From the NCBI GenBank assembly GCA_964016885.1, contig OZ024742.1:237336001-237400000 (forward strand): a stretch of 64,000 bases of DNA, written 5' to 3'. Of the stretch, positions 27,401 to 36,400 are shown piece by piece. Both the position numbers and the translations under genes were made by a program. A model generated the notes under the pieces. That model was not told the origin of the DNA. It did no database searches and was given only the letters and a program-made list of their open reading frames with translations. How positions within the stretch are numbered: the stretch's first letter is position 1; every line of letters begins with the position of its first letter. Origin of the DNA: Eledone cirrhosa. Taxonomy: Eukaryota.

Positions 27401-30400
27401 TGAACTGAGAGTGCAGACAGCCAGGATAAATACAGCCAATATTCTATCCAACATTCTAATGACTGCAAATTTGTGCCATATCTATATACACGTGTATATG
27501 TTTTTTAAAACAGTGAGTCCAGTAGAATACATATTGATAAACTCACTTTAATGAGCTCACTGTTTTAATAAAACATATTCACATTTGGCATTACATTTTT
27601 AGTATGTTTTAACTAACTTTACAATGCATGCTGCGCTGAACAGCTGACCTGAAGATTTATTTATATCATCGTTTTTAGATCTACAATTCCAAGCTGGTAT
27701 GAGCTAGATGGGATGGTTTGAGACAATGTTTTAGTCAGATACCATTCCTTATGCCAACCCTTTTAGTCACCTTTTATGGTGCACCTTCTTCTCTTCTTCT
27801 TTGCTCTCTTATTCCCGGGATTGTCATGGAGGCAGAATCCTCAAGCATGCCTTCCAGCAGGTCATGTCATATACAACTGTCTATAATTGATCAGGCTGGA
27901 TCCTTAAGCAAAACGAGCTGAGCTCATGGATATTATCCAACTATCTTGCTCAGGGTCTACTCAGAGATCTCCTGCCAGTTGGTTTTGCCCATAAAATCTG
28001 ACCAGTAATTCTTACCTTAGACATTCTAACCACATGTCCATAATATCATAGCTGAAATCTTTCAATTCAGAGAAGTGGTAGCTCTACATGGAGTGAGTTT
28101 CTGATCTCCGAGCTCCACACTCTATCAAGTAACATTACTCCAAAGACACTTTTGAGGAACCCCATTTCAGCTCCTTGTATTCATGATTGTATAATTTCGG
28201 TCATTCCCCAAGATTCATGACCACAGGTGAAAGTTGATTAGAATGCCAAATTGAAGATAGTGAGTTTGGATTTTATACCTAGCTCCCTTCTGATTACTGA
28301 ATGCTGAAGCTGGAATATTACTGCACCAACTTCTGCAATTCTTGCACTTAATTCAGCCTCCTGCTTTCTATCACTCATGAACATGGACCCAAGATACTTG
28401 AACTTCCCCACCTGCTTCAGTGGAACTCCACTCATATGTAGAGTGCACTGCGCAGGCTTCTTTGAGAGGATAAGTGTCTGAGTCTTTGCAGCACTGATTT
28501 TCATTCTTGCCATATAGCATTCATCTGCAAACCTATAAAATGCATGTTGGAGATCATCTTCTGTTGAGTTAAGTAATACCATGTCGACTGCAAATTCCAG
28601 CCAACTGATTCTACAGCTGCCAGTCACAAAACCACTTCTAACCTAGCTGTACATATCAATCCTGTCCATGAAGATTATGAACAAGAAGGGTGACAATATG
28701 TACCCCTGGCAGAGTCCAACGCCCACATTGCATGGTTTCAACTTAGCACCATTTATCCAAACACAAATACTACAGCATTCATATAGAGACATCAGGGCAA
28801 CAAAAAGCTGTCCATCGGTCCCATACTTCTGCAGAACCTTCCACAACAGATTCCATGGAATGCAGCGTATACCTTTTTGAGGTCTTTGAAACAAGCGTGC
28901 GCCTCTTGGCAATACTCCCATGATTTCCCAAAGACCTTTGGTCGGCTGTGCTGCATCTAGGGTGAAAACTACACTGTCCGTCAGTTACCTTAAACTCAAC
29001 AATCTCCCTACATCTCTTTGCCAGACACTTAACATAGATTTTACTAGGGATGCTTTGTGATATATAAATATATATATATATATAATTGCACATCTCAAAG
29101 GCGATGACACAAGACCGAGACCTCTGGTGTTACACAGTAATACAGAAGACCCGACTTCCCAATTAAAAATTAGAATTGTAGCTCTGAAATAGCAATATAT
29201 ATATGGATGTAAATATAATGTATTTTGCAATACACTTTATGCTTAATTAAAAGCATTTTGAAGACCGTAAGCTATTGTTTTAAAGTAGTGACAAATTCAC
29301 TCACTATATATTGCTATTTCAGATATATATTGCTATTTCACTCACTATATATTGCTATTTCAGATATATATTGCTATTTCAGAGCTACAATTCTAATTTT
29401 TAATTTCTGCCTGACCAACAACCGCTCTGCATAATCAGCTCCTGATTATTTACTAAATTTCTATAAGAATATAACATCATTAATCTCAGCAGACGGGCGG
29501 GGTAGTTGGCCTTGATAAGCTTCAACAAAAGCGAAACATGTCATGTCGGCTTATCTCCTCCTGTTTGCTGAGATCGAAGTGAGTGAATTTGTCACTACTT
29601 TAAAACAATAGCTTACGGTCTTCAAAATGCTTTTAATTAAGCATAAAGTGTATTGCAAAATACATTATATTTACATCCATATATATATTGCTATTTCAGA
29701 GCTACAATTCTAATTTTTAATTTCTGCCTGACCAACAACCGCTCTGCATAATCAGCTCCTGATTATTTACTAGATTTCTATAAGAATATAACATCATTAA
29801 TCTCAGCAGACGGGCGGGGTAGTTGGCCTTGATAAGCTTCAACAAAAGCGAAACATGTCATGTCGGCTTATCTCCTCCTGTTTGCTGAGATCGAAGTGAG
29901 TAAATTTGTCACTACTTTAAAACAATAGCTTACGGTCTTCAAAATGCTTTTAATTAAGCATAAAGTGTATTGCAAAATACATTATATTTACATCCATATA
30001 TATATTGCTATTTCAGAGCTACAATTCTAATTTTTAATTTCTGCCTGACCAACAACCGCTCTGCATAATCAGCTCCTGATTATTTACTAGATTTCTATAA
30101 GAATATAACATCATTAATCTCAGCAGACGGGCAGGGTAGTTGGCCTTGATAAGCTTCAACAAAAGCGAAACATGTCATGTCGGCTTATCTCCTCCTGTTT
30201 GCTGAGATCGAAGTGAGTGAATTTGTCACTACTTTAAAACAATAGCTTACGGTCTTCAAAATGCTTTTAATTAAGCATAAAGTGTATTGCAAAATACATT
30301 ATATTTACATCCATATATATATTGCTATTTCAGAGCTACAATTCTAATTTTTAATTTCTGCCTGACCAACAACCGCTCTGCATAATCAGCTCCTGATTAT

Positions 30401-33400: not shown

Positions 33401-36400
33401 ACTTTAAAACAATAGCTTACGGTCTTCAAAATGCTTTTAATTAAGCATAAAGTGTATTGCAAAATACATTATATTTACATCCATATATATATATATGTAT
33501 TGAAGTTTCCGTTGAAAACAAAAAAAGTCATAGGAGTGAAGAGTGCTCTATGTAAGTACCAGAGCAAAATTTAATGTATAAAAAACAACAATATATTATA
33601 TATATTATATATATATATATATATAGAGAGAGAGAGGGATATCAATTTACAGTAAGTTGTAGGAAGCTCAGATGCAGAAAATAACTGCAATTACAGTCAG
33701 TTGCTATAAAATAGCTTATAAAAATTAGGTAAAGACCACTAGAGATGAAAAAATGTTGCCAGTGGCCACTACGAAGAATCAAACTCCACATCTCCCAGAA
33801 TTCGGTTGGTTTCTTCGTTGTGGCCACTGGCAAGATTTTTCTGTCTCTAAGGATCTTAACTCAATTTTTATAAGCTATTTTATAGCAACTGACTGTAATT
33901 GCAATTATTTTATGCAGCTGAGCTTCCAACATCTTCCTATAAATCTATTTCTTTGGTGCTTAGTAAGTTTGAAAATTCAACTTTCACACACATTTGTTTA
34001 TATATATATATCACTTAAAATCAGACACCACTCCTATATCAAGTTGAAAATTAAATATCATTAACAAATCAATTCCTTACCAAAGATCTGCATTATGATC
34101 ATAGGGTTGTTCTTCAACAATTTCAGGGGCCATGTAGAGAGGTGTTCCCTATAACGAGATAATTAGATACAAACTGAGTGTGATAACAGATAACATAACA
34201 GTGGACATGCTATTTGATATTGTTTCATATACATGTTTATATGTTTCAATATTTCCACACACACACACACTCTCTTACATATATGTATATAAACAGATAT
34301 ATACACACATACATAAACATGCACACATAAAGAAAAGGAAAGAAGCTAATCATCAGATTCGACTAAGTTAAACAAAGAAATGAGGACCCCAGCAGCTAGG
34401 GCTTATCCAGAAGAGAATCTAGAGTCACAGATACATAAGGCCTGAAGGAACCAGAATAAGCTCCGGCCTGATAAACTTCTGGGCTTAGGACAGTCTTTAA
34501 CTGGGATGGGCTGGTGTCCTGACTAGCAAGAAGTAGTGATGTACTATCAGTTGCTTAATGCCACAAGGAATTGGAATAAGCTCTGGGCTTGAGACAAACT
34601 CTGTAATGGTCTGGTGTCCTGTTCAGAGGGAAGTATTGTACTCTCAGATACATAATGCCAAAGAAACCAGTAGAAACTCTGGTTTAATGAGCCTTAGGTT
34701 TTGGACAGACTTTAACTTAGCATGTATTTAACAGTCAAATGATTAATAATAAGGTGAAAACAATATACAATACCTTTACAGATGTAAGAACCAGAGTGTT
34801 AAAGCCCATAGCTCGGGCAAATCCGAAATCACAAAGTTTGATCTTTTCACCTTTGGTCAATAAAATGTTTTGAGGTTTCATATCACGATGTAAGATTCTA
34901 TGTGAATGAAGATAATAGAGGGCAGATACCAACTGACAGGAAATATGTTGCACCTGGAAATATACAGGAATTAAAATAAAGTAATATGCATAAAAAAAGA
35001 CATTTTAAGCAAGAAACATTGACATCATCTTCATTTTTATGTCCACTTTTCCATGCTAGCATGGTTTGGATGAGATGTTTTGAAGCAGTATTCTATGGCT
35101 GGATGTCCTTCCTTATGTCAACTCTTAACTTTCTTTTTAAAGGTACCAGTCTTTACAAGTAGAATCACCAAACTGCAGAACATATTGCTTTTGCAGGATA
35201 TTAATAAATGAGTTATTAATATATGAATAGTATTTCTTAGGATGATGAATTAATCTACTATGCTCTAAATGTTAAACTTGACACCACAAACTAAAGCATT
35301 GGAAGTTTCAGTTGCTTCTGATCAGTTAAATCTGTTTTGGGCCTGTCCAATTTGAAATAGATGTAGCTGCTTCACCATATTAGCCACGTAAATAAATTCA
35401 GTTGTAATAAGATGGAAATATTTTCTTACCTGATCTTCTGGCAAAGATCCATCATCTTCAAGGATTTGGTAAAGTTCTCCATCAGCATAATCCATTACAA
35501 CAACAAACTGTAGACAGAAGAAATCTAATGTTTAAAACATGATCCTCTTGATCACCATTTCATTATCTATCTCATCATTGTGTCATTCAAATGCTGCTAA
35601 GGTCAACTTTGCCTTTCATCCTTATGAGATTGATAAAATAAAGTACCAGCAAAGCACTGGGTCGATTTAATCGACTTTCCCCTCCCCTAAAATTGTTGGC
35701 CTCGTGCCTAAATCAGAAACCATTATTATGTCATTCAATTATGGTCATTTTCATTCTGAGTTCAAGTGCTGCTGAGGTCAACTTTGCTTTACATCCTTCC
35801 AAGGATGATACAATAAAGTACCAACGAAGTACTGGATTTGATATAATTGAAAATTCTCCTCCTTCAATTTTTGGACATGTGTCTATGATATTATTGATAG
35901 AAATCATTATTGTGTCATTCAGTTATGGCCCTTCATATTCTGAGTTCAAATCTAGTCAAGGTGAACTTTGTATTTTATGTTAATTGGGCCAATGTAATTG
36001 ACTTTCCTCTCTTCCCAACTGCTAGCTCTATGCCTATTTTAGACTGATATCAGGCCCAAGCAGGAGTGGGGTCCTTTCAGAATTTAACCCTTTAGTGTTC
36101 AAACCGGCCAAAACCGGCCAGAATTCTCTACCTCTTTCTTTTGAAACTGGCTGCAACTGGTTGCTCAAACTGATGTTAAGGTATTGTTCTCAAAATAAAT
36201 ACTTTCAAAATCTCATAGATTCGATATTATGTGAGATAATTATACGAGGTAAAGCCTTTACCATGAAAATATAATAGTATATCTAGAGTAATGTGAATGG
36301 TAAAGGGTTAAAGTAGTTAAGAGGTTTTTTTTTTTAAGAGTACGTGAATTGGCAAAATTGTTGTGGTATTTGTTCAGGCTGTTTACATCCAGAGTTTCAA

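Follow-up and report, generated by a model that had tools for sequence, protein, structure and literature searches.

The integration of animal retrozymes is an open question. Their mobilization from RNA circles by Penelope-like elements (PLEs) was hypothesized (PMC7229834) and later gained support from phylogeny (bioRxiv 2026.07.22.740005), according to the accessible parts of both sources. The insertions of PLEs have a characteristic anatomy, described in the available text of two studies as an inverted truncated copy, a 30- to 40-bp tail that is often confined to one of the ends, and targets of the (TA)n type (PMC8557442; PMC3846280). With the purified PLE PAc, the tail was the stretch between two internal start sites of the reverse transcriptase (RT) downstream of the hammerhead, and both strands of an AT-rich target were nicked and extended by a protein that is predicted to be dimeric (PMC11167929). 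Here we describe a tandem array of hammerhead-bearing, 317-bp units in the octopus Eledone cirrhosa, located in a 64,000-nucleotide stretch of contig OZ024742.1 (positions 237,336,001 to 237,400,000, forward strand; assembly GCA_964016885.1) that is referred to below as the window. We consider it fairly likely that the array represents the long arm from a single insertion of a young, dispersed retrozyme without long terminal repeats (a non-LTR retrozyme) that was mobilized by a PLE, probably from a circular RNA monomer.

What the first-pass annotation of the window had observed was borne out, and its interpretation was supported in part. Tandem Repeats Finder (TRF) delimited a tandem repeat at 29364-33492 (period, 317; 13.0 copies; 99% matches), in agreement with the 13 units of 317 bp reported earlier. 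The four differences listed between units (29456, 29902, 30133, and 30996) were exact, each being a single-nucleotide polymorphism (SNP) in a single unit, and units 7 to 13 were mutually identical. The type I hammerhead was recovered in 13 of 13 units, with the core at 29512+317n and the predicted cut after 29547+317n, nested as described in a long stem (18-bp arm pair, 29483-29500/29557-29574). The unit is noncoding, the longest stop-free frame being 46 codons, and its size, its GC content of 34.7%, and the hammerhead in each unit support the filing as non-LTR retrozyme-like. The recent origin that had been proposed is supported by family copies that are 99 to 100% identical across many chromosomes. 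The array does lie antisense inside an intron of STK36: the intron (26023-34080) is of the GT-AG type, and the exon downstream of it best matches the STK36-like sequence of Octopus sinensis (88% identical). Overlooked in the earlier account were the most informative features of the locus, namely, the inverted left arm and the Penelope tail; the U3-A8 core and the dispersal of the family had also gone unnoticed.

Two-armed insertions with two fixed 3′ ends

A family search with the unit returned 897 candidate places, the best 40 of which were scored, giving 224 matches. The exact 26-nucleotide (nt) hammerhead core is present in 1,075 copies genome-wide (706 forward versus 369 reverse), and the 100 chromosome-1 cores that were listed group into 52 loci, which scales to about 350 loci in the genome. 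Insertion anatomy was compared in two independent sets, the top-scoring 40 loci and 43 further loci on chromosome 1 (44 unseen loci minus one segmental duplicate). Unit bases are numbered with base 1 at window position 31266, and the predicted hammerhead cut falls after unit base 184.

A minus arm followed by a plus arm, with the 3′ ends pointing outward, was found at 34 of the 40 top-scoring and 34 of the 43 chromosome-1 loci. The 3′ ends clustered at base ∼8 (short) and at bases 32 to 42 (long, mostly 34), and the resolved two-armed loci paired one short with one long end in 28/30 and 28/28 cases, respectively (56/58 together; binomial P = 6e-15). One of the two exceptions, L052, sits in a whole-locus palindrome. 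Among the other loci of the two sets, 6 and 9 had a single arm, 2 contained a gap, and an end lay at another position in 2 and 6. An (AT)n tract adjoined 127/139 ends, and any target-site duplication, which in non-LTR retrozymes exceeds 4 bp when there is one, would be masked by these flanks. The window locus has its short end, at base 8, on the right. The tail measures at least 26 nt and at most ∼34 nt, the upper bound being set by unit bases 1 to 8, which match the (AT)n target.

A one-sided tail, an inverted truncated copy, and an (AT)n target are together the Penelope signature, and the two-armed structure with its tail on one side points to mobilization by a PLE enzyme. A PLE-type insertion with two start sites is thus considered very likely. 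The scrambled junction between the arms in the window (Table 1) presumably arose through repeated template switching.

Hammerhead ribozyme and predicted folding

The ribozyme core reads UUGAUAA (U3-A8) instead of CUGAUGA. The U3-A8 core is a natural, active covariant according to the accessible part of an earlier study (PMC3088659). The canonical features of a type I hammerhead are present (the 3-8 pair, GAAA, UH, and three stems), and stem I holds one G-U and one U-U. A search with Rfam at the gathering threshold gave no match anywhere in the window; Hammerhead_HH9 reached 31.1 bits (E value, 1.4e-5), which is under its gathering score of 52. The 3-8 pair varied among relatives, being C3-G8 in 28 loci, U3-A8 in 83, and a mismatched C-A in 2; stems I to III varied by compensating pairs, and stem III was palindromic or near-palindromic in the common variants.

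The minimum free energy (MFE) of the circular monomer was −74.3 kcal/mol (z score, −3.9 versus 60 shuffles). The active fold with a single hammerhead lay 5.3 kcal/mol above the MFE fold, which sequesters the core and the cut site in a model that does not contain tertiary contacts. For a two-unit transcript, the double hammerhead (−124.3 kcal/mol) was favored by 11.7 kcal/mol over a pair of single hammerheads (−112.6 kcal/mol) and lay 2.1 kcal/mol above the MFE (−126.3 kcal/mol). Because the single hammerhead is predicted to misfold, cleavage in this folding model probably requires two neighboring units. That dimeric hammerheads may cut multimers yet spare circles is an established idea in the available text of previous reports (PMC4209133; PMC7229834).

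Template and origin of the 13 copies

If the template were a cut linear monomer, cDNA synthesis would halt at base 185, having covered 141 or 167 nt. The 5′ ends of 151 arms were uniform over the unit (Kolmogorov-Smirnov P = 0.33), with 5 ends at bases 180 to 190 versus 5.2 expected. At least two cut sites were crossed by 23/69 chromosome-1 arms, a proportion to be discounted to some extent because this set was chosen for holding the core, which inflates cut-site crossing. The uniform 5′ ends and the arms that cross cut sites therefore indicate that the template was a circle or an uncut multimer. Either every unit of the two arms carried the variant 119A>G or no unit did (17/40 loci), and arms of the same locus agreed at 514/541 diagnostic calls compared to 65% between loci. 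L204, L216, and L217 each had variants seen at no other locus that were fixed in their two arms. These shared variants favor one template molecule per insertion. Given a PLE-type two-start insertion, a circular template is likely.

Rolling-circle copying, which the first-pass annotation had proposed for the array, thus stands at the level of the family (uniform 5′ ends, cut-crossing arms, and shared variants) but is not proven for the 13 copies in the window. Arms in the chromosome-1 set had a median length of ∼1.1 units and a maximum of 6.6. Longer arms were present at L031 (5.7 plus 7.5 units) and L033 (at least 3.8 plus 7.4 units). The four SNPs of the array, each a singleton, are compatible with a rolling-circle origin but do not establish it. 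On balance, we lean toward all 13 copies having come from one reverse-transcription run.

Six runs from 4 studies, all of unrecorded kind and none listed as RNA, were considered, and the assembled contigs of 4 runs were compared with the unit. One run had a single 347-nt contig that consisted of the unit plus an overlap, which fits an array as well as a circle, and a run from another organism had 1,171 related contigs; neither run shows expression.

Exact cores were strand balanced on chromosome 1, unlike the 706/369 distribution genome-wide; therefore, one or more very large arrays of the family are probably located elsewhere in the genome. No large donor array was located for the youngest subfamily; a search with the unit of another subfamily gave one older satellite. 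L226 (C2:207,696,000-207,705,999) is a satellite of at least 29 units with higher-order units of 304, 316, and 500 bp, one type having a ∼184-bp insert.

Penelope-like elements in the same genome

Three PLE families were compared with the unit. For the family present in the window, there were 22,477 candidates, with 30 loci and 8 longer stretches examined; the corresponding numbers were 21,994, 10, and 12 for a second family and 39,133, 30, and 20 for the third, which is young. The young family has a 4,146-bp unit with an intact open reading frame (ORF) of 1,218 codons (C28:42,016,352-42,020,008), and its copies are 99.0 to 99.9% identical. Pfam recognized RVT_1 in the second family only and nothing in the window and young families. 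The young family is called PLE-like because its RT and GIY-YIG regions are collinear with those of the second family and because its Atlas neighbors are RT/GIY-YIG/HTH_animal. The neighboring PLE-type elements are, from their motifs, what we take to be Neptune-like and Hydra-like. The window and second families have their own hammerheads, and the ends of the window family are about 53 and 143 nt past the cut. In the young family, tandem 4,146-bp units were found on both arms, and the terminal region has paired hairpins; this region had no Rfam match at E values up to 1, and no hammerhead was recognized in the family.

The young family served as a positive control. In 18 stretches that were picked for opposite-strand matches, one short and one long end were present in 15/15 resolved two-armed loci. 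The retrozyme unit has neither an RT nor a GIY-YIG ORF and is therefore not an autonomous PLE. Relatives of the unit that were seen beside copies of the PLE families are separate insertions.

Evidence against the proposed origin and alternative explanations

Several observations speak against a PLE-mobilized retrozyme that was copied from a circle, in addition to the selection of the chromosome-1 set mentioned above. No partner was found among the three PLE families, whose termini are without similarity to the unit (the local score was attained in 114/200 shuffles), and the tails of these families are longer than that of the unit (∼90 nt in two families and 43 to 65 nt in the young one). In the older 316-bp subfamily, 28 loci comprised 6 with short plus long ends, 2 with short plus short ends, 2 unresolved, and 18 single; both ends recur, but only 6/8 resolved loci are mixed. 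The left end in the window is atypical in that it lies at base 42 and adjoins a LINE (long interspersed nuclear element) fragment rather than (AT)n. With a typical arm of ∼1.1 units and a maximum of 6.6, the 13 units are an outlier, and expansion after insertion has occurred elsewhere in the family, as indicated by L040, in which two SNPs recur at a spacing of three units, and by the L226 satellite. The concordance of arms is in part also expected with homogeneous donor arrays or with subfamilies active at different times. The young PLE family builds tandem arms without a recognized hammerhead, which indicates that multimeric arms need no hammerhead-made circle. The hammerhead of PAc was dispensable, and unprocessed RNA was the main substrate in vitro (PMC11167929). 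For Xenopus retrozymes, the available text of a preprint reports that 8/9 dimers did not cleave (bioRxiv 10.64898/2026.07.22.740005).

Part of this evidence would suit a PLE two-start insertion from a long, uncleaved linear transcript of a donor array, with a slow or irrelevant hammerhead and no circle. The PAc assay that had no need for the hammerhead (PMC11167929), the 5.3 kcal/mol that separate the active monomer fold from the MFE, the multimeric arms of the young autonomous family, and the existence of large arrays (at least 29 units at C2:207.696 Mb, the 706/369 imbalance hinting at more) are all consistent with such a template. However, most loci have 1 to 2 units per arm and would be unable to donate long arms, the 5′ ends are not piled at any transcript start or cut, locus-specific variants are fixed in each unit of both arms, and the hammerhead has been preserved through compensatory changes in subfamilies that are 67 to 100% alike. 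A linear template thus seems improbable, although it is a more serious competitor than the origins considered below. A different question is copy number, since a short insertion of 1 to 3 units followed by unequal exchange, slippage, or assembly inflation to 13 would be compatible with mobilization by a PLE. The repeated SNPs of L040, the higher-order satellite L226, the identity of units 7 to 13, and the far shorter usual arms fit such an expansion, whereas the four SNPs of the array are all singletons, as is likewise the case in L031, L033, and L056, and both arms are long in L031 and L033. Later expansion is the less likely source of the 13 copies, but it is easier to accept than a linear template.

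The layout of the unit, with a hammerhead upstream of two 3′ termini, is that of the pseudo-LTR (pLTR) of a PLE, and the available text on Xenopus retrozymes relates them to PLE pLTRs and proposes local amplification (10.64898/2026.07.22.740005). The units could by analogy be solo pLTRs of an autonomous PLE that were locally amplified as a satellite, as proposed for vertebrate retrozymes. We rejected this origin as quite improbable, because the arms wrap seamlessly through the unit without a fixed 5′ junction to a body and because no PLE ORF with homologous termini was present among the loci examined; moreover, loci that are dispersed and nearly identical can have two multimeric arms. The inverted arm might instead derive from fold-back self-priming of one cDNA rather than from priming off both target strands. 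Self-priming has been proposed for inverted PLE ends in the accessible part of PMC3846280, and 2/56 head-to-head junctions are exact palindromes. The other 54/56 junctions are not palindromic, the short-ended arm is the longer one in 30/56 loci, and neither arm of L203 or L219 can be a copy of the other. The arm lengths and these two loci argue that the two arms were made independently, and with the junctions they largely refute fold-back, which we hold to be scarcely more credible than the solo pLTRs. Finally, the intronic, antisense position might suggest a host-adopted antisense regulator of STK36. The locus is one among an estimated ∼350 of a very young family, the hammerhead strand is opposite to the pre-mRNA strand, and other mobile fragments are also present in the intron region; nothing links the retrozyme to STK36 function, and such a role is extremely unlikely.

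Proposed mechanism

For the PLE-mobilized retrozyme, which is the origin that we prefer, the following sequence of events can be proposed. In a multi-unit transcript, a double hammerhead would form across neighboring units via the palindromic stem III and free a 317-nt monomer. The monomer would be ligated to a circle, which would be spared because its single hammerhead is predicted to misfold. An RT/GIY-YIG protein of a PLE, predicted to be dimeric, would nick an (AT)n target on both strands, and reverse transcription would start at two positions downstream of the cut (141 and ∼167 nt), with one site used per strand. Each cDNA would be extended around the template to a random length, and microhomology would join the two cDNAs. 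At the window locus, one arm would have halted after 145 nt, and the other would have reached 13 units, perhaps partly through later expansion.

A more specific version is tentative, and we would sooner expect it to fail than to hold. It supposes that one PLE dimer acts on a single 317-nt circle, each subunit priming its own strand from its own start site to yield two multimeric arms, while the dimer-only hammerhead spares the circle; the driver would be the young, intact 1,218-codon PLE, recruited by RNA structure and not by shared sequence.

Related families and other features of the window

The coordinates of the features are listed in Table 1. The older 316-bp subfamily has 3,504 candidates, including two copies in the window. 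A more distant third family, 67 to 75% alike with a ∼311-bp unit (L199:40-560, L201:1-430, and L068:3950-4500), has a minimal hammerhead and a palindromic stem III, and its tail motif is also that of the array. Relatives frequently adjoin within a shared (AT)n tract. Other families were represented by further hammerhead motifs, at window position 47098 (+) and at L042:692 (+), the latter also with U3-A8.

A 5′-truncated copy of histone H4 coding sequence (window 52822-53150, plus strand; 96% identical to the H4 genes on contig C14) stops just short of the histone stem-loop and is head-to-head with the older retrozyme arm at 52467-52813. It looks like a captured host mRNA that became the other arm of a PLE-type insertion.

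The LINE fragment beside the left arm is either captured filler or flank that was already present. It matches the ORF 3′ end of an abundant LINE, presumably RTE-like from its motifs, and the 75-bp fragment resembles the end of LINE-like ORFs such as those at window 40192-43533 (minus strand; 353 plus 759 codons), in which endonuclease and RT motifs were identified by eye. A long hairpin at 33638-33951 (147-nt arms, 84% complementary; 20-nt loop) may be like a miniature inverted-repeat transposable element or an inverted PLE stump. A bacterial promoter scan gave results at chance level and is irrelevant here.

TABLE 1 Coordinates of the retrozyme insertion, its parts, and associated features (window positions unless a contig or locus is named)
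Feature	Position	Strand	Remarks
Right arm, 13.03 tandem 317-bp units	29361..33492	+	Unit base 315 to base 8 (short 3′ end), then ATATG
Left arm, inverted 145-bp partial unit	29161..29305	-	Spans unit bases 215 to 42; 3′ end of the long type, including tail; 100% identical
Head-to-head junction	29306..29360	.	Scrambled 55 bp; short repeated pieces, unit bases ~1-19 and ~215-222
Tail, unit bases 9-34	29169..29194	-	Between the two family-wide 3′ termini
Type I hammerhead, unit 1	29506..29553	+	Recurs each 317 bp; predicted cut after 29547
Parts of the unit 1 hammerhead	Stem I, 29506-29511/29548-29553; core UUGAUAA, 29512-29518; stem II, 29519-29532; stem III, 29536-29546		GAAA follows stem II; stem III palindromic
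Long closing stem carrying the hammerhead	29483..29574	+	18-bp arms 29483-29500 / 29557-29574
LINE ORF 3′-end fragment, 75 bp	29086..29162	+	Between (AT)n run and left arm
Host intron, STK36-like kinase gene	26023..34080	-	Phase 2, GT-AG; flanking kinase exons read ..DLW and ALGC..
Older relative, ~74% identical, 316-bp unit	52467..52813	-	Canonical CUGAUGA hammerhead; ends at homologous long terminus
Second older partial copy	53347..53580	-	Ends at homologous short terminus
Broken PLE-like ORF, window family	16612-18780; also 15093	+; -	Own hammerhead type in inverted terminal repeat
Young PLE-like family loci	C28:42,004,471-42,061,482; L269:353-4009		Asn-rich insert, RT, C-terminal GIY-YIG-like region

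Comparison with known systems

The octopus family makes the question of retrozyme integration directly testable. It adds anatomical evidence, in that 56/58 insertions followed the PLE tail rule, the control being an autonomous element from the same genome, and it predicts base-level RT start sites, dimer-dependent cleavage, and strict use of one site per strand. Such strict use was not seen in vitro for PAc, in which the strands were alike (PMC11167929). Because retrozymes, tails, a palindromic stem III, and the U3-A8 core were each already known, the surprise is moderate. A partial search of the literature listed no paper about retrozymes in octopuses and none about retrozyme tails or twin priming; the family may be listed in the supplements of PMC7229834, PMC8557442, and the bioRxiv preprint. 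Judged by its sequence, it is a new, young non-LTR retrozyme family with insertions like those of PLEs, and it is ascribed to no named PLE family.

The plant LTR retrozymes carry type III hammerheads in LTRs; the octopus element differs in having type I topology and no LTR pair. With the non-autonomous Chlamys elements such as MRC1, the family shares PLE-type, non-autonomous, multicopy head-to-tail insertions, as described in the available text of PMC8557442. Vertebrate retrozymes have been interpreted as non-autonomous PLE sequences (Li, Clavereau, and Pollet, bioRxiv 10.64898/2026.07.22.740005); the inferred mobilization of retrozymes by PLEs and a similar unit size are common to both cases. 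The evidence in the accessible text of that preprint, from which the word “tail” is absent, is co-occurrence and pLTR phylogeny, whereas the evidence presented here comes from the anatomy of insertions, with no pLTR homology found.

The endonuclease-containing (EN+) PLEs (Poseidon PAc, PMC11167929; Neptune, Hydra, and Naiad, PMC8557442; rotifer Penelope, PMC3846280) share with the octopus family, as far as the consulted parts of these sources go, an inverted 5′-truncated copy, a tail at one end, (TA)n targets, and partial tandems, as well as a hammerhead upstream of two RT start sites. The octopus family differs from them in being without an ORF, in its tail of 26 to 34 nt, in having two arms that consist of the repeat only, and in showing no match to the three PLE families tested.

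The closest relatives in form are the metazoan non-LTR retrozymes of coral, mussel, and axolotl (Cervera and de la Pena 2020, PMC7229834). According to the available text, they have in common with the octopus family tandem units of 150 to 450 bp, a type I hammerhead in each unit, a GC content of <50%, a noncoding character, and dispersal as dimers to multimers; mobilization by PLEs from circles is a hypothesis already stated there, and the dimer-dependent ribozyme predicted here resembles that of the axolotl retrozymes. The main text of that study does not contain the words “tail,” “inverted,” “microsatellite,” or “octopus.” The octopus family, which is known from sequence alone, differs from these retrozymes in its two-armed insertions with a PLE tail, its (AT)n targets, and its U3-A8 core.

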